A stretch of DNA of 44,649 nt. Origin: Vectrevirus T147P9. The stretch lies in sequence record OZ035774.1. One strand, written 5' to 3'. The translations under genes and the position numbers were made by a program. The first letter of the stretch is position 1; the number at the start of each line of letters is the position of its first letter. The notes under the pieces are model-generated. The model was given only the letters and a program-made list of their open reading frames with translations. It ran no database searches and had not been told where the DNA came from. Shown here piece by piece: positions 1 to 44,649 of this stretch.

Positions 1-29
1 TAATAAGTTCAAGATTTGGAGGGAGAAGC

Positions 30-329
30 GTGAGCGTACACAATAAACATGCAGCTACAGAGGACGAGGTTGGCATTCTGCATGGTGCTATTACCAAAAT
101 CTTCAATAAGAAAGCACAGGCAATACTGGACACTATAGAAGAAGACCCTGATGCAGCATTACATTTAGTGTCTGGTAAGGATATTGGTGCGATGTGTAAG
201 TGGGTTCTTGATAACGGCATTACCGCCACACCTGCTGCACAGCAGGAAGAGTCCAAGTTATCTAAGCGCCTCAAGGCTATCCGAGAGGCATCCAGTGGCA
301 AGATTATTCAGTTTACAAAAGAGGAGTGA
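30..329 (+). CDS. putative terminase small subunit (DNA maturase A-like)
   Basis: 99-aa ORF, GTG start at 30 with GGAGGGA RBS at 18-24; lies between the gp17.5-like holin and the terminase large subunit, i.e. the T7 gene 18 position. Call is by synteny and size only; no motif recognised. Confidence 0.5.
   Translation: MSVHNKHAATEDEVGILHGAITKIFNKKAQAILDTIEEDPDAALHLVSGKDIGAMCKWVLDNGITATPAAQQEESKLSKRLKAIREASSGKIIQFTKEE
121..143 (+). promoter_or_regulatory. phage RNAP promoter-like sequence (variant) inside terminase small gene
   Basis: caatactggacactatagaagaa; matches the window consensus ATTTACTGGACACTATAGAAG except at 2 upstream positions. Confidence 0.4.
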
Positions 330-330
330 T

Positions 331-774
331 ATGCATAGATGGTGTGAATCTCAAGGTTATACCATCTTACCTTCTGGTGTCATCCTTTCAAAGGGTGGCA
401 CCCCTCTCAAACCATTCAAGGCGGGTAGGGGTTATTTAGCAGTTAAAATTAAAAATAAAGAAGGTAAATGGCGTAATGTCTATGTTCATCAATTAGTGGC
501 TTATAAGTATTTACCTAAAACTAATAATGAAGTAAACCACAAAGACGGCGATAAGCACAACAATGATGTTAGCAACTTGGAGTGGGTAACAAGAAGCGAG
601 AATAACTATTTAAAATGCAATGGAAATGATAGGAGTGCCTTAAATAGCTATTTAGCAAGATTAAAAGATTGCTTCTTGCAAGGTAAGGGTGTAGCAGAAA
701 CCGCTAGACTTACTGGTAAAAGTGAACCAAGAGTTTCTTCTCTCTTTAAGGAGTGGCGAAATGGCAAAGGCTAG
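331..774 (+). CDS. HNH homing endonuclease
   Basis: ATG at 331 preceded by GAGGAG RBS (321-326); translation contains VHQLVAYKYLPKTNNEVNHKDGDKHNNDVSNLEWVTRSEN, the His-Asn-His/N-x-x-N pattern of phage HNH endonucleases; paralogous to the ORF at 18554..19033. The track ORF 184..774 is an unsupported N-terminal extension overlapping the previous gene. Confidence 0.75.
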   Translation: MHRWCESQGYTILPSGVILSKGGTPLKPFKAGRGYLAVKIKNKEGKWRNVYVHQLVAYKYLPKTNNEVNHKDGDKHNNDVSNLEWVTRSENNYLKCNGNDRSALNSYLARLKDCFLQGKGVAETARLTGKSEPRVSSLFKEWRNGKG

Positions 775-2659
775 AGAATCACAGGCAGAGGCATTAAAGC
801 GGTGGGAAAACCTTAAAGAACTACAAGACACTTTTAAATATACAGCGGAAGGTTTGCTTCTCTTTGCAGATACAGTTATCCATAACTTGATTGCAGGCAA
901 CCCTCATCTGATTCGTATGCAGGCTGATATCTTGAAGTTCCTATTCTACGGACATAAGTATCGCCTCATCGAAGCGCCTCGTGGTATCGCTAAGACAACA
1001 CTATCAGCAATCTACACGGTATTCCGTATTATCCATGAACCGCATAAGCGTATCATGGTTGTATCCCAAAACGCTAAGCGAGCAGAGGAAATCGCTGGTT
1101 GGGTGGTGAAAATCTTCCGTGGCCTAGACTTCCTTGAGTTTATGCTGCCGGATATCTACGCAGGGGACCGTGCATCCGTTAAAGCATTTGAGATTCATTA
1201 CACCCTACGTGGTAGTGATAAGTCTCCTTCTGTATCCTGTTACTCAATCGAAGCAGGTATGCAGGGTGCTCGTGCTGATATTATTCTAGCGGATGACGTA
1301 GAGTCGATGCAGAATGCTCGTACGGCAGCGGGCCGTGCCTTGCTTGAGGAACTGACTAAGGAGTTTGAATCTATCAACCAGTTTGGGGATATCATTTACC
1401 TTGGTACGCCTCAGAACGTAAACTCTATCTACAACAACCTACCTGCTCGTGGTTACTCTGTTCGTATCTGGACTGCGCGTTATCCTTCAGTAGAGCAAGA
1501 GCAATGTTATGGTGACTTCCTTGCACCTATGATTGTTCAAGATATGAAGGACAACCCAGCACTTCGCTCAGGGTACGGGTTGGATGGTAATAGTGGTGCA
1601 CCTTGTGCCCCTGAAATGTATGATGATGAAGTCCTGATTGAGAAGGAAATCTCTCAGGGTGCGGCTAAGTTCCAGCTTCAGTTCATGCTTAACACTCGCA
1701 TGATGGATGCAGACCGCTACCCACTACGCCTGAACAACCTCATCTTTACTTCGTTCGGTACAGAGGAAGTACCTGTAATGCCTACGTGGAGTAATGACTC
1801 TATTAACATCATTGGCGATGCCCCGAAGTATGGCAATAAACCTACAGACTTCATGTATAGACCTGTGGCTCGCCCGTATGAATGGGGTGCTGTTACACGC
1901 AAGATTATGTATATTGACCCTGCTGGTGGTGGTAAGAATGGGGACGAAACAGGCGTGGCTATAGTCTTTCTGCACGGCACATTCATTTACGTGTATCAGT
2001 GCTTCGGTGTGCCAGGCGGATACCGTGAATCGTCCCTGAATCGCATTGTGCAGGCCGCAAAGCAGGCGGGTGTTAAAGAGGTATTCATTGAGAAGAACTT
2101 TGGTCATGGCGCGTTTGAGGCCGTTATAAAGCCATACTTTGAACGAGAGTGGCCTGTAACTCTGGAAGAGGATTACGCCACAGGACAGAAAGAGTTGCGT
2201 ATCATTGAGACGCTGGAGCCACTCATGGCGGCACACAGGCTCATCTTTAACGCAGAGATGGTGAAATCGGACTTTGATTCGGTACAGAACTATCCGCTTG
2301 AGCTACGCATGTCCTACAGCCTTTTCAATCAAATGTCGAACATCACGATTGAGAAGAACAGCCTCCGGCACGATGACCGCTTAGACGCTCTGTATGGCGC
2401 TATACGGCAATTAACTTCTCAGATAGACTATGACGAGGTTACACGGATTAATCGCCTCAGAGCGCAGGAGATGCGCGATTACATCCATGCTATGAACACA
2501 CCTCACCTCCGCAGGGCGATGCTCTATGGAGATTATGGCACTGAGCGAAGAGTAACCAACACTTCCGTGGCTATGCAGCAAAGAGTGTACGGTCAGAATT
2601 ACAGGAGTAAATCGGCAAATCGAAATACACTTTCTGCAAGGATTTCAAGGACTTATTAA
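761..2659 (+). CDS. terminase large subunit (DNA maturase B)
   Basis: About 630-aa ORF; Walker-A-like segment (LIEAPRGIAKTT), C-terminal nuclease-like segment (YIDPAGGGKNGDETG); size and position match T7 gp19. Start taken at ATG 761 (RBS AAGGAGTGG 748-756); in-frame alternative at 722. Confidence 0.9.
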   Translation: MAKARESQAEALKRWENLKELQDTFKYTAEGLLLFADTVIHNLIAGNPHLIRMQADILKFLFYGHKYRLIEAPRGIAKTTLSAIYTVFRIIHEPHKRIMVVSQNAKRAEEIAGWVVKIFRGLDFLEFMLPDIYAGDRASVKAFEIHYTLRGSDKSPSVSCYSIEAGMQGARADIILADDVESMQNARTAAGRALLEELTKEFESINQFGDIIYLGTPQNVNSIYNNLPARGYSVRIWTARYPSVEQEQCYGDFLAPMIVQDMKDNPALRSGYGLDGNSGAPCAPEMYDDEVLIEKEISQGAAKFQLQFMLNTRMMDADRYPLRLNNLIFTSFGTEEVPVMPTWSNDSINIIGDAPKYGNKPTDFMYRPVARPYEWGAVTRKIMYIDPAGGGKNGDETGVAIVFLHGTFIYVYQCFGVPGGYRESSLNRIVQAAKQAGVKEVFIEKNFGHGAFEAVIKPYFEREWPVTLEEDYATGQKELRIIETLEPLMAAHRLIFNAEMVKSDFDSVQNYPLELRMSYSLFNQMSNITIEKNSLRHDDRLDALYGAIRQLTSQIDYDEVTRINRLRAQEMRDYIHAMNTPHLRRAMLYGDYGTERRVTNTSVAMQQRVYGQNYRSKSANRNTLSARISRTY

Positions 2660-2680
2660 TTACTGGACACTATAGAAGGA
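2658..2680 (+). promoter_or_regulatory. phage RNAP promoter
   Basis: aattactggacactatagaagga immediately 3' of the terminase large stop; SP6-like core CACTATAGAAG. Confidence 0.7.
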
Positions 2681-2813: not shown

Positions 2814-3092
2814 ATGTCTAATAGTTATAGTACACAACCCCTTACCGGTAAGTCTGCTCGTAAGCAGATACAACCTGTGAGTGAAGCCCTGATGCTTCCT
2901 GTAGTTTACGAGGACACTGTTGAGAAGAAAGGTGATGTTATTAATGATGCCACCAAATCAGGTAAGCAGAAAGGCGCCATGGTGTGTCTTGATACACATG
3001 ATACACTGGTTATTGCTATCGCAGTTGATGGCAAAGAAGATTCCAATTGGCTGACCACGTTATTAGCGGTCACTACTATTACCCCAGCTTAA
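2814..3092 (+). CDS. hypothetical protein (tandem paralogue A)
   Basis: ATG 2814 after AGGAGAGAG RBS; shares SGKQKGxMVxxxxxDxxLxIAIA with the next ORF. Confidence 0.6.
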   Translation: MSNSYSTQPLTGKSARKQIQPVSEALMLPVVYEDTVEKKGDVINDATKSGKQKGAMVCLDTHDTLVIAIAVDGKEDSNWLTTLLAVTTITPA

Positions 3093-3104: not shown

Positions 3105-3392
3105 ATGTCTAATTATGGAAACGCAGGTACTGTTACTGGTCAAGCTTTTCGAGTAAAAACTGTACAAACCACTGCAACGGCAATCCCTTTGCCTATTGTT
3201 GCTGAAGCAGACCTTAAGAAGAAAGATCACCCTATCAACATTAAACACCTATCTGGCAAACAGAAAGGCTCCATGGTTGCTGTAGAGAAAGCAGACAACT
3301 CCTTGTACATCGCTATTGCACGTGGTAGTGAACCAACTGACCCTTGGGATGCAACCACTATGGAGGAGACACCTGTAACCCCTGTAGCTTAA
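3105..3392 (+). CDS. hypothetical protein (tandem paralogue B)
   Basis: ATG 3105 after AGAGGAG RBS; both paralogues start MSN and share a conserved core. Confidence 0.6.
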   Translation: MSNYGNAGTVTGQAFRVKTVQTTATAIPLPIVAEADLKKKDHPINIKHLSGKQKGSMVAVEKADNSLYIAIARGSEPTDPWDATTMEETPVTPVA

Positions 3393-3413
3393 TTGTAACA
3401 GATGAGGTCGGTG

Positions 3414-3758
3414 ATGCTTAATAAATACTTCAAGCGACGCGAGTTCGCTTGCCGTTGTGGGTGCGGTACATCCACTGTTGATGCTGAATTACTACAGGTA
3501 GTAACAGATGTGCGTGAGCACTTTGGTTCTCCTGTAGTTATCACTTCGGGGCATCGCTGTGCTAAGCACAATGCTAATGTAGGAGGAGCTAAGAACTCCA
3601 TGCATCTTACTGGTAAGGCTGCTGACATTAAGGTACGAGGCATCTTACCTTCTGATGTACATAAGTATCTTACTGATAAGTACCAAGGCAAATATGGGAT
3701 TGGTAAGTATAACTCCTTTACTCATATTGATGTACGTGACGGGTGTGCACGATGGTAG
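3414..3758 (+). CDS. endolysin, peptidase M15 family (zinc D-Ala-D-Ala carboxypeptidase-like fold)
   Basis: SGHRCAKHNANVGGAKNSMHLTGKAADI and FTHIDVRD give the His/Asp/His zinc-ligand pattern of M15 peptidases; start at ATG 3414 (GAGG upstream), alternative ATG 3402. Confidence 0.8.
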   Translation: MLNKYFKRREFACRCGCGTSTVDAELLQVVTDVREHFGSPVVITSGHRCAKHNANVGGAKNSMHLTGKAADIKVRGILPSDVHKYLTDKYQGKYGIGKYNSFTHIDVRDGCARW

Positions 3759-3866
3759 GTTGTGTTGCATGGTGTGAACGCATGGTTGCTAAGGCTTCAG
3801 AGGAAGGCAACTATGAAGATTGGCAGAACTACTCAACTTTATTAGCTCAATGGAAAGGGAGATGCA

Positions 3867-4016
3867 ATGAAAAAGCTGTTCAAATCTAAGAAGGTTGTAG
3901 GTGCACTAGTTGCATTGGCAATTGCTCTTGTTTCTGTAGGTCTTGGTGTAGACCTTGGCTCTGGCACGGAATCCTCTGTGACAGACGTGGTCTGCCAAGT
4001 GATCACCTGTGAATAA
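3867..4016 (+). CDS. small single-TM membrane protein (possible holin/antiholin-like lysis protein)
   Basis: 49-aa ORF MKKLFKSKKVVGALVALAIALVSVGLGVDLGSG..., basic N-terminus plus one hydrophobic helix, sited between endolysin and spanin genes. Not in the ORF track (<60 aa). Confidence 0.35.
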   Translation: MKKLFKSKKVVGALVALAIALVSVGLGVDLGSGTESSVTDVVCQVITCE

Positions 4017-4230
4017 GTTTCTAGAAGTGCTGGCAGGTCTTATTGGCCTGCTTGTCTCTGCTAAGAAGAAACAAGAAGAGAAGGAGGCACAAAGTGAAGC
4101 GAATCATGTTAGTGACAATCCTGCTGATTGGTTCGCTGACCACTTCCGGGTGTCAGCAGGCGTTACCAGAGAAAGCAATGGTGAAACCTCTGAGGCCGAC
4201 GCTGACGGCAGTTTACGAGGTAGACGATAA
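4009..4230 (+). CDS. putative i-spanin (Rz-like)
   Basis: GTG start; N-terminal TM helix (FLEVLAGLIGLLVSA) followed by a charged soluble domain; contains the o-spanin-like ORF in another frame, as with T7 18.5/18.7. Confidence 0.55.
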   Translation: MNKFLEVLAGLIGLLVSAKKKQEEKEAQSEANHVSDNPADWFADHFRVSAGVTRESNGETSEADADGSLRGRR

Positions 4231-4303
4231 AGTCTGCTTCAGTAAGCCTGATGCTACAAAATTAGGTTTGTATATTCTTTCGCTAGAACGCGGATATAAT
4301 TAA
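4106..4303 (+). CDS. putative o-spanin (Rz1-like lipoprotein), overlapping the i-spanin gene
   Basis: MLVTILLIGSLTTSGCQQ is a signal peptide with a lipobox-like Cys; ORF starts inside the Rz-like gene in a different frame and extends past its stop. Alternative GTG start at 4094 with AAGGAGG RBS at 4081-4087. Confidence 0.55.
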   Translation: MLVTILLIGSLTTSGCQQALPEKAMVKPLRPTLTAVYEVDDKVCFSKPDATKLGLYILSLERGYN

Positions 4304-4332
4304 TACATAGCTTTATGTATCAGTGTCTTACG

Positions 4333-4356
4333 ATTTACTGGACACTATAGAAGAGG
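4333..4356 (+). promoter_or_regulatory. phage RNAP promoter (consensus copy)
   Basis: atttactggacactatagaagagg upstream of the first tailspike gene. Confidence 0.75.
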
Positions 4357-4434
4357 TAAGATAGCGCCGTTCTTTTGAGCGGCCTATTACTAGCCAATCT
4401 TCATGGTGAGGGTTGGAAAGTAATAGGAGGTTTA

Positions 4435-6327
4435 ATGGCAAGATTAACTCGCCCTGTTAGTGTATTTAATAGTCTGATGGATATTACTTACCCATGCTCC
4501 ACTGATGGTGGTAAAGCGGAACTACTACAGGTTATACCCGGACGTATGTCTGGTGGTGGTATCCTACTTTGGGACGCCAGTATGCCTCAGTCCAATCATA
4601 ATGGTATTACCATCCTCAGCCCTGAAGCTAAATGGGATGGTACTCTAGAAGGTTTTAAGGCCTATAGGGAAAGTGGAGGGACTGGCAATGGTTGCTGGGT
4701 TCGACCACGCAAAGGTACTGATCTGATGGCATCTTGGGCTGGTGTTGACACAGACGGGGACTGGATTGCGGATGAGCCACTTATGGCGCTGTGTCAGATT
4801 GCACATACACAACGTCGTAATATACGCATAGACTCTGGTGCTGTCATTCGTTGCGGTTTCACAACTCCGATTTTTCAGCAAGACAAGCACAACATTCTAT
4901 CTCAAACATCTTTTGTATTACGTGGTTTAAAGAACTTCTCCATATATGCTGAGCAAGATGCAGAGATAATCACAGACCACCCTGTACATCGTGAGCGTAC
5001 AGTATTCTTCTTGGACGGTTGCGATAAGGTTACAATTTCTGGTCTTAAGTTTAATTCTGATTTCAGCGATTATTCTTTCGAACCTAATAGTCCCTATGAG
5101 CACCATATCAATGAACACTGGTTAGGTGTAGTTGCAGAGGCTTGTGGTACTGTTGAGGTTCGCAGATGTATGTTCAATGCACCTCAGTTTGCTGTAAAGG
5201 CCGACTGTTTTAATAGAACAGACGGTAGGTGGAATGACACAGTTGCAGTAAAAGATTGTTTCTTCCAGTATGCTACAAACTATTGCTTTTTATCACGTAA
5301 GTTACGACATTACATCTTCTCTGATAATGAAGTAAGATTTAATGGACGTAAGTGGCATACATATGGAGAGGCTTGTGCTCCTACTACCTATACTGAGAAT
5401 CAGATTATCACTCGTAACCGTTTCATAGATCAGATTGCTGGTCAAAGCTGTATAACTCCTGGTTCTTATGCTAAGCAAGTACTTATTTCAGATAACTTCT
5501 GTCAACGTAGTAATGGTATCTTTGTTGAGATAGGCAGTGCTAGTAATATTAATATTCTTAACAACGTCTCCAAATCTACAGGTGAACGCATCGTCCACGG
5601 AAGTGATAAGTATGCAGGAACTACACACATCCTTCTAGTATCTGGGGCAGTTGATGATGAACCTGCTGGTGGGCTAAGTAATATCTTGATTCAAGGTAAT
5701 AACTTCCAAGGCGGTGGTTATGCTTTACAAGAGTACAATACAGGCATCCCTATTCGTCGCGGGTTGGATATTCTTAATAACCACCTTGTAGACTGTATTC
5801 CACCAGCCTGTACTAACCAATCCTTTAAGTATATTAGGGTAGAAGGTAACTACATCCAAGCACCGGATGATTACCCAGATATGGCTATTGCAGGTCAACA
5901 CCCTATTATCAAGGATAATGTCCTTATCGGTGTGCGATTGAGGGCTAGAGATTTAGGTTATACTGTTGTAGGGTTAAAAGTAATAGGTAATACTTTTACT
6001 GCAAATAGTGTAGCATCTAAGTTCCCTGCACTGATAGACTACACTGATCTAGAAGATCTTGAAGCTTATGACAACGCAGCAGGTATTCAGGCATCTTATG
6101 ATAGCTTTATAGTAGCACCTGATAACTGTAATAAAATTAGCTTTATGAAAGTCGGTATGGTTGAAGGTTTTACACAGACACCAGCAGTGGTTTATGGTAG
6201 TAAGTTGCAAGAACAGAAGGCAGGTGCGATTATTGGCAATAGTGCACCTGGGTCTGTACATGGTTGTGCTGCATTCGTGAGTACTTCTAGTGGTGGTTGG
6301 GGTTTTATAAACTACGTTCCCGCATAA
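4435..6327 (+). CDS. tailspike protein 1 (putative capsule depolymerase with beta-helix-like repeats)
   Basis: About 630 aa; ATG 4435 after AGGAGG RBS; repetitive segments (ISGLKFNS, ILNNVSKS, IQGNNFQGGG, RVEGNYIQ, IGNTFTANS) suggest a parallel beta-helix; right-end position as in K1-5/SP6 tailspikes. Track start 4375 lacks an RBS. Confidence 0.65.
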   Translation: MARLTRPVSVFNSLMDITYPCSTDGGKAELLQVIPGRMSGGGILLWDASMPQSNHNGITILSPEAKWDGTLEGFKAYRESGGTGNGCWVRPRKGTDLMASWAGVDTDGDWIADEPLMALCQIAHTQRRNIRIDSGAVIRCGFTTPIFQQDKHNILSQTSFVLRGLKNFSIYAEQDAEIITDHPVHRERTVFFLDGCDKVTISGLKFNSDFSDYSFEPNSPYEHHINEHWLGVVAEACGTVEVRRCMFNAPQFAVKADCFNRTDGRWNDTVAVKDCFFQYATNYCFLSRKLRHYIFSDNEVRFNGRKWHTYGEACAPTTYTENQIITRNRFIDQIAGQSCITPGSYAKQVLISDNFCQRSNGIFVEIGSASNINILNNVSKSTGERIVHGSDKYAGTTHILLVSGAVDDEPAGGLSNILIQGNNFQGGGYALQEYNTGIPIRRGLDILNNHLVDCIPPACTNQSFKYIRVEGNYIQAPDDYPDMAIAGQHPIIKDNVLIGVRLRARDLGYTVVGLKVIGNTFTANSVASKFPALIDYTDLEDLEAYDNAAGIQASYDSFIVAPDNCNKISFMKVGMVEGFTQTPAVVYGSKLQEQKAGAIIGNSAPGSVHGCAAFVSTSSGGWGFINYVPA

Positions 6328-43200: not shown

Positions 43201-43529
43201 GGTTGGCTTTTGGTGCTATGGGTATGATGAGTACAACTGCTGTGTTTAGCTTAGGTGGAGACTTCTTAGGCGGCCTAGGTGTTCTCCCTTCTGAGTTAGT
43301 ACAATCCCGTTATGAGGCTGGCTTTCAGACTAAGGGTTTGATAGACCAAATACCACTAGTAGGTGTTGGTCAAGATGCATATCGTTTAGCAGATTCTATA
43401 ACTAAATATGCAGAGGGTGATACAGAAGGTGTAGATGTGGCACGTAGGGCTTTACGCTTAGTGCCTCTAACTAATGTAATAGGAATCCAGAACGCATTGC
43501 GTTATGGCTTAGATGAACTGGAGGATTGA
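40221..43529 (+). CDS. large internal virion/core protein (gp16-class)
   Basis: 1102-aa ORF after two other internal virion protein genes; Gly/Ala-rich hydrophobic segment near residues 130-200; call by size and synteny. Confidence 0.7.
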   Translation: MEQDINTNWAGYVQSTPEPFSIEAAPVSAPTIRQRNELQEQVLEAKADADILGAVGAAFQNEWLAFGGKRWYDRATADFTPQPDFEIQPEQREALRFKYGTDMMQTITEGVRSEDELNFRIQNADEDLERNKRIAQAGWAGSVATIGAAVLDPVGWVASIPTGGAAKVGLVGRAVRGAIAAGVSNAAIESVLVQGDMTRDLDDIMVALGSGMAMGGVIGAVARGRATKLSEQGDDRAASVVRSADAGDRYVRAVADDSIGAMRVKGEEVLTEGAFDISSKGEDLLKTLQREGNAIDMTPRRWAGTLSALGTVVHSSQDASVRGLGARLFESPQGLGAQKASASLMQNTNLNRLKSADMNRFNDGFDLWLKENNINPVAGHTNSHYVQQYNEKVWEAVRIGMDESTPKSIRMAAEGQQAMYREALALRQRSGEAGFEKVKADDKYMPDIFDSMKARRQFGMHDKEDIIELFSRAYQNGSRKVPKEVADDIARAQVNRVADATLTGQLSFEKAMSGQTKAEYEALMRKAGFSDEEIEKMVEALDNKETRDNISNRAKMSLGLDVTQEYNGIRMRDFMNTNVEELTDNYMKEAAGGAALARQGFSTYQAALSAIDLVERNARNAAKDTKAHAQFEAESAKIRQSEPDYKKAQEKIEELKKRLKLKEKDEAAGLAVDEEIRQMREGLRLIMGKSIDADPQTLSNKMLRRGRDITGVLRLGQMGFAQLGELANFMGEFGIAATTIALGKQFRFTSKALRSGDGFFRDKNLAEVERMVGYIGEDNWLTTKGARPDEFGDVTTVRGMMVHFDQSMNSIRRAQTNLSLFRMAQGSLERMTNRQIALSFIDHLEGKKIIPQKKLEELGLTQGFMTNLQKHYDANSKGSGLLGFDTMPYAMGETLANAIRRKSGLIIQRNFIGDEGIWMNKALGKTFAQLKSFSLVSGEKQFGRGIRHDKIGLAKKTAYGFALGSIVYAAKAYVNSIGREDQDEYLEEKLSPKGLAFGAMGMMSTTAVFSLGGDFLGGLGVLPSELVQSRYEAGFQTKGLIDQIPLVGVGQDAYRLADSITKYAEGDTEGVDVARRALRLVPLTNVIGIQNALRYGLDELED

Positions 43530-44491
43530 TGAGTTATACTTTCACAGAACATATAGCCAACGGTACGCAAGTAACCTATCCCTTTAGCTTTGCTGGTAGG
43601 GATAAAGGTTATCTTCGTGCCTCAGATGTGATAGTGGAATCTCTTCAAGGTAACACTTGGATTGAGGTTACATCTGGCTGGCAATTAACTGGCACGCACC
43701 AGATTACTTTTGATGTAGCACCAGTTGCAGGTTTGAAGTTCCGTATTCGAAGGGAAGTACAAAAGGAATATCCATACGCTGAGTTTGACCGTGGTGTTAC
43801 CTTGGATATGAAGTCTTTAAATGGTTCTTTCATTCATATACTGGAGATTACACAGGAGTTACTTGACGGGTTTTATCCAGAAGGATACTTCATTAAACAG
43901 AATGTAAGCTGGGGCGGCAATAAGATTACTGATTTGGCTGATGGCACAAATCCGGGAGATGCAGTAAATAAAGGGCAGCTTGATGCCATTGACAAGAAGC
44001 ATACAGATTGGAACACCAAACAGGATATTGAGATTGCTGGCCTTAAAGCAGGTATGACTTCTGGTATTGCGCACAGAACTATCCCTTGGTACACGATCGC
44101 CCAAGGAGGTGAGGTTTCCGTAAAACCTCCTTATGAATTTCAAGATGCACTAGTTTTCCTTAATGGGGTCTTGCAACACCAAATCGTAGGCGCATACTCT
44201 ATAAGCAGCAACACTATCACTTTCGCAGAGCCACTTGTGGCTGGCACAGAGGTGTATGTGCTGATTGGCAGTCGTGTGGCTACATCTGAACCTAATATTC
44301 AGTTAGAGTTGAACTTTGACTTAGTAGAAGGCCAACAAGTAGTACAGATTGGCTCTGCATTTAAGTACATTGAGGTCTACCTTGATGGATTATTACAACC
44401 TAAACTTGCTTATCAGGTAGACGGTGTCATTGTTACTTTCTCAGAAAGAGTACCAGAATGCCGGATGACTGCTAAGATTATCACAGCATAA
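43526..44491 (+). CDS. tail fibre adaptor protein (homologue of the T7 gp17 N-terminal tail-attachment domain)
   Basis: 321 aa; TYPFSFAGRDKGYLRASDVIVESL and IRREVQKEYPYAEFDRGVTLDMKSLNGSFIHILEITQE parallel the N-terminus of T7 gp17 but the protein lacks a long fibre shaft. Confidence 0.75.
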   Translation: MMSYTFTEHIANGTQVTYPFSFAGRDKGYLRASDVIVESLQGNTWIEVTSGWQLTGTHQITFDVAPVAGLKFRIRREVQKEYPYAEFDRGVTLDMKSLNGSFIHILEITQELLDGFYPEGYFIKQNVSWGGNKITDLADGTNPGDAVNKGQLDAIDKKHTDWNTKQDIEIAGLKAGMTSGIAHRTIPWYTIAQGGEVSVKPPYEFQDALVFLNGVLQHQIVGAYSISSNTITFAEPLVAGTEVYVLIGSRVATSEPNIQLELNFDLVEGQQVVQIGSAFKYIEVYLDGLLQPKLAYQVDGVIVTFSERVPECRMTAKIITA

Positions 44492-44500
44492 GGAGGTAGG

Positions 44501-44649
44501 ATGATTAACTCCGAACTGGTAGATAGTGGTGTGAAGCTTGCGCCACCTGCACTCGTATCAGGTGGGTACTTCCTCGGTATCAGTTGGGATAATTGGGTGT
44601 TAATCGCAACATTCATTTATACCGTGTTGCAAATTGGGGACTGGTTTTA
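44501..44649 (+). CDS. class II holin, T7 gp17.5-like (3' end beyond window; continues in frame at position 1-46)
   Basis: MINSELVDSGVKLAPPALVSGGYFLGISWDNWVLIATFIYTVLQIGDWF resembles remembered T7 gp17.5; AGGAGG RBS; no stop before the window end; reading on from position 1 gives a basic tail and a stop at 44-46. Confidence 0.75.
   Translation, partial: MINSELVDSGVKLAPPALVSGGYFLGISWDNWVLIATFIYTVLQIGDWF

Follow-up and report, generated by a model that had tools for sequence, protein, structure and literature searches.

Putative overlapping spanin-like gene pair in a compact lysis operon of Vectrevirus T147P9

Which protein is the partner of the small lipoprotein encoded in the lysis cassette of SP6-like phages? 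This question is raised by positions 3414-4303 of the genome of Vectrevirus T147P9 (OZ035774.1), the 44,649 nucleotides (nt) of which were analyzed as a whole and are termed the window. Five lysis-cassette genes are located there on the + strand; they encode an endolysin, a small soluble protein, a 49-amino acid (aa) membrane protein, a 73-aa protein and a 69-aa lipoprotein. All gene junctions overlap, and therefore about 350 codons fit in 890 nt. K1-5, K1E and SP6-like phages serve widely as capsule-targeting therapeutic and model phages, and the annotation of their lysis genes is inconsistent across GenBank, RefSeq, PHROGs and SpaninDB. Comparative evidence identifies which open reading frame (ORF) is obligately paired with the lipoprotein. 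We propose, with a probability of about 0.6, that the 73-aa ORF and the lipoprotein gene constitute an overlapping spanin-like pair within a five-gene lysis operon. Shown here are the structure of the genes, the coding in both frames, their conservation and co-occurrence, and the context of a lysis cassette.

The 73-aa ORF (4009..4230, +; phrog_9219) begins with a GTG codon and shares its first 8 nt with the end of the 49-aa gene, to the stop of which it is translationally coupled. Within this ORF starts the lipoprotein gene (4094..4303, +), which overlaps it by 137 nt in the +1 frame. Codon-position entropy was determined for 26-29 distinct SP6-like sequences. The part encoding only the 73-aa protein (4017-4093) gave 0.44/0.11/0.79 in its own frame, which is a normal coding signature, and the part encoding only the lipoprotein (4231-4300) gave 0.22/0.00/0.60 in the lipoprotein frame. 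In the overlap that encodes the signal peptide (4094-4153), entropy was depressed at all three positions (0.19/0.09/0.29). Furthermore, synonymous sites were compared in 49 distinct versions of a 30-nt motif region taken from highly diverged loci. Proline in the 73-aa frame was always encoded by CCT, as required by leucine in the other frame; glycine in the lipoprotein was always encoded by GGT and preceded by a codon ending with T, as required by the W-F/Y of the 73-aa protein. Both overlapping frames are coding and under selection. An explanation of the 73-aa ORF as a by-product of signal-peptide conservation was rejected because the lipoprotein frame has its synonymous sites fixed at just those positions which the 73-aa frame requires. 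The overlapping frame, which was the subject of one of two preset refutation tests, is conserved in relatives and experiences a selection of its own, as judged from entropy and synonymous fixation; the test did not refute the pair.

The 73-aa protein is composed of an N-terminal hydrophobic or amphipathic helix, a charged helix, the sequence NPADWFADHF (4117-4146) and a disordered acidic tail. A profile search identified 443 family clusters at 50% identity. The motif [ND]PxxW[FY]xxHF is conserved across these clusters and is near invariant in the family; the signal-peptide residues that it overlaps vary. Among the best 150 of the 443 matches, almost all proteins comprise 60-85 aa. The family is large, unannotated and abundant in uncultured phages; it was sampled in IMG/VR loci L043-L095 and L123-L182 as well as in proteins P0155-P0299. 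Some relatives stop earlier, hence the C-terminal ~12 residues are dispensable. No relative was identified in Pfam (none at E ≤ 1), NCBIfam or PDB. A search of 185,579 species-representative bacterial genomes with NPADWFxxHF as a degenerate DNA pattern returned two stretches, both chance matches.

The lipoprotein is a predicted 69-aa outer membrane lipoprotein precursor and the putative outer membrane spanin (o-spanin) of the pair; it matched phrog_8971 (Rz-like spanin) with an E-value of 9.9e-39. A first-pass annotation, made from the sequence of the window, had located this ORF at 4106..4303 in another frame. The frame and the stop at 4303 were correct, but the start more likely lies 12 nt upstream at GTG 4094 rather than at ATG 4106. 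GTG 4094 is preferred because it is located 7 nt after a Shine-Dalgarno sequence AGGAGG (4081..4086, +), which was read from the sequence inside the 73-aa ORF, and because it supplies an n-region containing K/R; additionally, it aligns with the ATG starts of SP6, Proteus phage PM116 and Pseudomonas phage MR4. The same AGGAGG is given in SpaninDB as ribosome binding site of K1-5 and K1E. The lipoprotein read from GTG 4094 equals the annotated K1E gp45, K1-5 gp48 and the o-spanin listed in SpaninDB for the K1-5/K1E/SP6 type, namely gp45, a 69-aa protein starting with MKRIML (Kongari et al. 2018; PMC6139136).

The precursor shows the N-terminus MKRIMLVTILLIGSLTTSG followed by the lipid-modified cysteine; the signal peptide is encoded by 4094-4150 and the cysteine by 4151-4153 (lipobox TSG-C). 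The other preset refutation test concerned this lipobox, which is present and was kept in all relatives: the cysteine is invariant, with the lipobox variants TSGC, ISGC, LTAC, VMGC, LVGC and TAAC. A scan of the coding strand of the whole window identified the lipoprotein as the only ORF with a credible lipobox. At position +2, the window encodes glutamine, and G, V, A, S, L, K, T or I, never D, are found in relatives. The Lol system sorts lipoproteins without aspartate at position +2 after the lipid-modified cysteine to the outer membrane. By this rule, an outer membrane location is predicted for the lipoprotein. The mature protein consists of 50 aa including a proline-rich KPxRPTL sequence, one periplasmic cysteine and the C-terminal helix DATKLGLYILSLERGY. 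In the family, a KPxKPTL motif and a C-terminal amphipathic helix LGxYILxLE are conserved, and the internal cysteine is present in at least 90% of the members. A lipoprotein homologue was found in 158 phage records, and all hosts named therein are Gram-negative.

Co-occurrence of the two ORFs was analyzed from both sides. From the side of the 73-aa protein, 80 IMG/VR loci were collected by the family motif together with 15 annotated phage loci. An overlapping lipoprotein ORF in the +1 frame was present in 95 of these 95 loci; 87 lipoproteins were detected automatically and the remainder by eye (lipoboxes VMAC, TAAC and QIAC). From the side of the lipoprotein, loci were searched with the motif DGG[IMF]C, which is located outside the overlap; the search was repeated with this motif because the first one had been anchored inside the overlap, and a narrower o-spanin alignment was used because the broad one was too diverse. 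Here, an ORF of the 73-aa type in the -1 frame was present in all testable loci (59/59). As this co-occurrence holds while the upstream gene varies, we regard the 73-aa/lipoprotein pair as a stable evolutionary unit.

Nine distant cassettes were read. Most of them consist of an endolysin (e.g., Peptidase_M15_3), a small holin-like transmembrane protein, the partner and the lipoprotein, with start/stop overlaps of the ATGA type or of 8 nt. The pair stands where canonical lysis cassettes carry their spanin genes. Some distant relatives additionally encode, just 5′ of the endolysin, a protein of ~77-114 aa that has one transmembrane domain (TMD) and a predicted coiled coil, as found in L048 (1193-1426), L083 (1168-1428), L067 (985-1236), L050 (800-1081) and L156 (975-1319). 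The TMD is N-terminal in some of these relatives and C-terminal in others; this protein is a candidate lysis factor.

The closest published counterpart is the pair of UAB_Phi78, which is listed in SpaninDB as overlapped and consists of a 69-aa inner membrane spanin (i-spanin) and a 61-aa o-spanin (PMC6139136). This i-spanin is a homologue of the 73-aa ORF; the record versions are offset by a constant 119 nt. The partners share 74% and the lipoproteins 88% identity, the +1 overlap is the same, and the pair likewise follows an M15 endolysin and a 49-aa gene. The partner of the window has a tail longer by 4 aa and its lipoprotein is best started at GTG 4094; these differences are not essential. 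In contrast, SpaninDB lists K1-5, K1E and SP6 as "separated" with the 49-aa protein as i-spanin (PMC6139136), and the genome announcement of LL11 describes a "separated spanin pair". These phages belong to the same lineage as the window and carry the same o-spanin (gp45/gp48; the copy in the window is 97% identical to that of K1-5), but the public sources name the 49-aa protein as i-spanin and miss the ORF that overlaps the lipoprotein gene. The 73-aa ORF is often left out of annotations, as in K1-5 and K1E, yet it is carried by K1-5, K1E, SP6 and LL11; in the RefSeq record of SP6, the homologue of the 73-aa ORF is annotated (gp48) and the lipoprotein is missing. Because of the co-occurrence data, the overlapped assignment is favored over the separated one, and the presence of "members of different architectures" in this SpaninDB family looks like an annotation artefact. 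Hence, the overlapped spanin pair in a compact lysis cassette, as proposed in the first-pass annotation, is supported by co-occurrence, dual coding and the entry for UAB_Phi78.

The prototype of the overlapped architecture is LysB/LysC of phage P2 (cited in PMC6139136). There, too, the i-spanin gene harbors the start of the o-spanin gene, which is read in the +1 frame and continues past the i-spanin stop; the sequences are unrelated. SpaninDB contains overlapped i-spanins which are mostly longer than the partner in the window (~70-150 aa; PMC6139136). The pair also resembles lambda Rz/Rz1 and T7 gp18.5/gp18.7 in that two genes occupy two reading frames of the same DNA, and in that one of them encodes a small proline-rich outer membrane lipoprotein with a periplasmic cysteine. 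By analogy, the pair of the window may likewise act in the last step of holin-endolysin lysis. The lambda and T7 pairs are embedded, whereas the pair of the window is overlapped. Its partner comprises 73 aa as compared to 143-153 aa, lacks long coiled-coil domains and cysteines, and has a short or amphipathic anchor; the T7 pair lies between TerS and TerL, that of the window elsewhere.

From these features we propose the following course of lysis. The region 3414-4303 would be transcribed late as a translationally coupled five-gene lysis operon. The T7-type holin, encoded ~3.4 kb upstream, would permeabilize the inner membrane and thereby release the soluble M15 endolysin, which would degrade the murein. 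The lipoprotein would reside in the outer membrane, as suggested by the lack of aspartate at +2; it carries a proline-rich linker, the single cysteine and the C-terminal amphipathic helix. The 73-aa product would replace the i-spanin and associate with the inner membrane via its N-terminal hydrophobic helix; its NPADWFADHF sequence is probably in contact with the C-terminal helix conserved in the lipoprotein. After degradation of the murein, the 73-aa/lipoprotein complex would join the two membranes as Rz/Rz1 does, and in this final step of lysis the outer membrane would be disrupted. In this scheme, we infer the localization of both proteins, their interaction and the fusion of the membranes.

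Several findings weigh against this proposal. Comparison by hhalign of the 73-aa partner with lambda Rz and T7 gp18.5 gave probabilities of 0.1-0.8%, i.e., no homology; for the lipoprotein compared with Rz1 and T7 gp18.7, the probability was 19-26% and referred to the lipobox region only. Because no sequence homology is detectable, the similarity to Rz/Rz1 is a functional analogy only. The searchable literature yielded no experimental work on any of these cassette genes. The putative periplasmic part of the 73-aa protein is short (~55 aa) and mostly disordered in an AlphaFold2 model with a mean predicted local distance difference test score (pLDDT) of 63. This model shows helices at residues 2-36 and 38-45 (NPADWFAD) and disorder at residues 46-73; the first helix extends only ~17 residues past its hydrophobic part. 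Furthermore, the protein has a hydrophobic core of only 15 residues (F4-A18) with Glu6 inside it, and the longest stretch without a charge spans 12 residues.

The family as a whole deviates even more from a typical membrane anchor. Among 109-132 family representatives, the N-terminal helix is a strict a/b/d/e heptad with charged c/f/g positions. The median of the longest uncharged run is ~9 residues, and a run of ≥18 was found in only 5 of 132 representatives. The hydrophobic moment of the helix is 1.05-1.8 as compared to 0.3-0.8 in control TMDs. The family carries on average 3.8 K/R after the helix and 0.8 before it (4 and 1, respectively, in the protein of the window), a distribution that does not favor an N-in/C-out orientation. 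The positive-inside rule was downgraded as evidence against a type II topology, because the controls lambda Rz and T7 gp18.5 were ambiguous as well. Crude Kyte-Doolittle and Hessa sums over 19-residue windows did not separate the helix from those of T7 gp18.5, the T7 holin and lambda S105; the hydrophobic moment and the family charge profiles are more informative on its status as a TMD. Judged from these sequence properties, a type II topology appears plausible for the SP6-like version of the 73-aa protein and doubtful for much of the family. The 73-aa ORF, described in the first-pass annotation as an Rz-like transmembrane protein, proved to be real; its anchor, however, is short, and across the family it is amphipathic, and the protein is "Rz-like" by analogy only.

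These properties lead to the most serious alternative, in which the partner is not an integral type II protein, but a cytoplasmic amphipathic coiled-coil oligomer that is gated by the holin and acts like a disruptin; the pair would still disrupt the outer membrane. The 73-aa protein would enter the periplasm via the holin lesion, like the endolysin, and would there bind to the lipoprotein and insert the amphipathic helix into a membrane. Such a mode of action would be consistent with the family-wide a/b/d/e heptads having D/E/K/R at positions c/f/g (e.g., MFKIIDIIDRLLLLIVKW), with the high hydrophobic moment, with the basic cluster after the helix and with the presence of a TMD-length stretch in only a minority of the family. 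It would also agree with the translational coupling of the 73-aa protein to whichever holin-like gene precedes it. A precedent is phiKT gp28, described in a preprint as a "disruptin", i.e., a phage-encoded cationic peptide that disrupts the outer membrane in lysis (Holt et al., bioRxiv 10.1101/515445). If the 73-aa protein is not membrane-integral, gp28 may be its analogue, but gp28 is cationic and works alone, with no lipoprotein as a partner, whereas the 73-aa protein is net acidic and always paired. The disruptin is reportedly amphipathic, acts only after holin and endolysin, and is said to leave the cytoplasm via the holin lesion.

Against such an alternative, the polar heptad positions of the 73-aa protein of the window are mostly small or neutral (A9, G10, G13, V16 and S17), resulting in the 15-residue core. 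Its Kyte-Doolittle value over 15 residues is 2.21, and by the crude insertion score (dG15), it performs at least as well as T7 gp18.5 (+0.9 and +1.6, respectively). SpaninDB takes the N-terminal stretch of the UAB_Phi78 homologue as a membrane anchor and assigns a 48-residue periplasmic domain to this 69-aa protein; furthermore, charged residues in oligomerizing transmembrane helices are not unheard of. We consider a non-integral partner rather unlikely. As a tentative idea, to which we give slightly more credit, the module may represent a mechanistically distinct, holin-gated "minimal spanin" with the partner docking via NPxDWFxxHF. Provided that the helix does not integrate into the inner membrane, it would be a distinct system for outer membrane disruption whose partner stays in the cytoplasm until the holin fires, and the 49-aa membrane protein would be an addition of the SP6-like phages. 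The non-canonical anchor raises the question of how spanin-like modules of such small size get to both membranes and bridge them.

The 49-aa protein (3867..4016, +) equals K1E gp44 and belongs to phrog_4712; the ORF and its single TMD, both noticed in the first-pass annotation, were confirmed. It contains five lysines in the N-terminal flank, a 19-residue uncharged TMD (Kyte-Doolittle value over 19 residues, 2.64) and a C-terminal C-x4-C. With 5 K/R on the N-terminal side and 0 on the C-terminal side, a type II (N-in/C-out) topology with ~20 periplasmic residues is predicted. It is labeled "holin" in PHROGs and RefSeq, "i-spanin" in SpaninDB and "hypothetical" elsewhere. If the assignment in SpaninDB and in the LL11 announcement were correct, this protein would be an i-spanin separated from the lipoprotein, and the 73-aa ORF would have another role or none. 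The topology fits such a function in textbook manner, including two cysteines in the ~20 outside residues, and three phages, K1-5, K1E and SP6, are listed accordingly. However, the curators of SpaninDB themselves commented "Too small?" and "Too short" on the protein, for which just 21 periplasmic residues are given (PMC6139136).

The distribution of the 49-aa protein also argues against a role as i-spanin. A profile search detected its family only in SP6-like phage genomes of ~44-46 kb, and tblastn with the 49-aa protein reached close relatives only. It is absent, within 2 kb on either side, from ~110 loci which carry the 73-aa/lipoprotein pair; thus, the lipoprotein occurs without a protein of the 49-aa type, but never without an ORF of the 73-aa type, and it retains its cysteine where the 49-aa protein is absent. 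As the gene before the pair, a 49-aa Cx4C protein was found only in the SP6-like, Gajwadongvirus, Aeromonas, Edwardsiella and Erwinia lineages. In other lineages, an unrelated "STWRG" protein with two TMDs or another small transmembrane protein takes this place, so that distant cassettes contain unrelated holin-like genes in the 49-aa position. Where the upstream small transmembrane gene immediately adjoins the partner ORF, both are translationally coupled. Together with the clear purifying selection on the 73-aa ORF, these findings make the separated model improbable.

The 49-aa protein holds the position of the holin-like genes of relatives; a holin-like or holin-modulating function is more likely than that of an i-spanin. 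Most likely, it is a lineage-specific accessory protein, holin-like or a holin regulator. A possible analogue is Lcc6 of the Shewanella phage LambdaSo, a 65-aa transmembrane protein needed for lysis at the level of the holin (bioRxiv 10.1101/2024.01.23.576932). Both may be extra small transmembrane lysis factors; LambdaSo lyses by means of a pinholin and an endolysin of the signal-anchor-release (SAR) type. Papers on a CSP1 antiholin and on phage fEg-Eco19 turned out to be unrelated to these genes. Searches of Pfam, NCBIfam and PDB with the families of the 49-aa protein, the small soluble ORF and the lipoprotein returned nothing significant.

A function of the lipoprotein outside lysis, e.g., in superinfection exclusion of the Cor/Llp type with an incidental overlap with the 73-aa ORF, might be suggested by the adjoining tailspike genes, but is hardly credible, as the lipoprotein is kept in phages that differ in host and tailspike (Escherichia, Klebsiella, Salmonella, Proteus, Aeromonas, Pseudomonas and Salicola), follows endolysin and holin-like genes in most of the cassettes read, is the sole o-spanin candidate in a genome with holin and endolysin, and shows the Rz1-like traits of small size, proline richness and a single cysteine.

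The overlapping spanin-like pair is favored over these explanations, and the cassette is of an already known kind, with its sequence essentially present in GenBank. The present analysis adds the corrected start of the lipoprotein, the recognition of the overlapped ORF as its obligate partner in K1-5, K1E, SP6 and relatives, the lineage specificity of the 49-aa protein, and the finding that the "TMD" of the partner family is a conserved amphipathic heptad helix. Among these four additions, we rank the amphipathic helix as the only one that could lead to something new.

The endolysin gene (3414..3758, +) starts the cassette. Its product matched Peptidase_M15_3 (PF08291; E = 5.5e-33, 113.8 bits as compared to a gathering cut-off of 23.2) and phrog_894 (endolysin; E = 3.7e-45), which bears out its annotation as an M15 peptidase endolysin. 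The translation shows SMHLTGKAAD and THID, corresponding to LAS-type zinc ligands (H-x6-D ... H), and weak similarity to the zinc D-Ala-D-Ala carboxypeptidase 1lbu. Neither a signal sequence nor a SAR domain was found in 3414..3758; by its sequence, the protein is classified as a soluble LAS-type zinc peptidase. The frame is open from 3402; ATG 3414 gives the length of K1E gp43 and is preceded by a GAGG Shine-Dalgarno sequence. The protein equals K1E gp43, and the copies in relatives are annotated as endolysin.

The holin gene is cut by the junction of the window, with its 5′ part at 44501..44649 and its 3′ part at 1..46 (+). It encodes a T7-family class II holin (Phage_holin_2_2, PF10746; E = 1.5e-27, 95.5 bits as compared to a cut-off of 25.4; phrog_920, holin), in agreement with the gp17.5-like holin expected there by the first-pass annotation, and lies ~3.4 kb upstream of the endolysin. 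It is located in the position of T7 gene 17.5, between a tail-fibre-like gene (43526..44491) and TerS (30..329), and its 3′ part overlaps the start of TerS at position 30.

A small conserved soluble ORF (3743..3889, +; phrog_1312, E = 4.2e-18), absent from the first-pass annotation, follows the endolysin gene, whose stop it overlaps, and extends into the start of the 49-aa gene. Its true start is probably ATG 3752 or 3782, and the product comprises ~40-48 aa with a C-x3-C. Homologues in the same position were found in UAB78, PM116, Koku and in Aeromonas and Edwardsiella phages. The codon-position entropy of 0.56/0.39/0.92 is coding-like; internal stop codons occur in two relatives (L099 and L097). 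The product may act as a lysis regulator.

The window represents a linear genome of the K1-5/K1E/SP6 type (Autographiviridae, Molineuxvirinae) in circularly permuted form. Over positions 3300-4450, deposited genomes including Vectrevirus OZ035797 and OZ035776 are 98-99% identical; K1E, vB_EcoP_B, vB_Ec-G9 and others show 86-98% identity. Nine promoters of the SP6 type for phage RNA polymerase, all on the + strand, matched the consensus TTACTGGACACTATAGAAGAG with ≤3 mismatches (positions 123, 2660, 4335, 14502, 17025, 22225, 22689, 23835 and 32018); the chance expectation was 0. The late promoter TTACTGGACACTATAGAAGGA (2660..2680, +) directly follows the stop of TerL and probably drives gp41/gp42 together with the lysis operon. 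The next promoter (4335..4355, +), an exact match to the consensus, is located before the tailspike genes and marks the 3′ limit of the lysis operon. Hence, the lysis genes form the end of one late transcription unit.

Among the neighboring genes, TerS (30..329) matched DNA_Packaging_2 and TerL extends over 722..2659. An ORF for an HNH_3 homing endonuclease (331..774; E = 2.6e-11) is located between them and overlaps the start of TerL; K1E carries a different endonuclease insertion within TerL. Two tandem paralogous small genes (2814..3092 and 3105..3392) lie 5′ of the endolysin. In PHROGs and RefSeq, they carry the label "acetyl-CoA acetyltransferase" (phrog_2725); Pfam provided no support, and in the Klebsiella phage Koku, a coding sequence of ~178 aa after the single "acetyl-CoA acetyltransferase" gene is annotated as "Hoc-like head decoration protein". 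The label of the phrog_2725 genes looks unreliable. Downstream of the cassette, the first tailspike gene (4435..6324) gave no Pfam match. Its equivalent in ULINTec7, the best-scoring related record (92% identical over the query), is annotated as "K5 lyase", which suggests that this tailspike may be specific for the K5 capsule.

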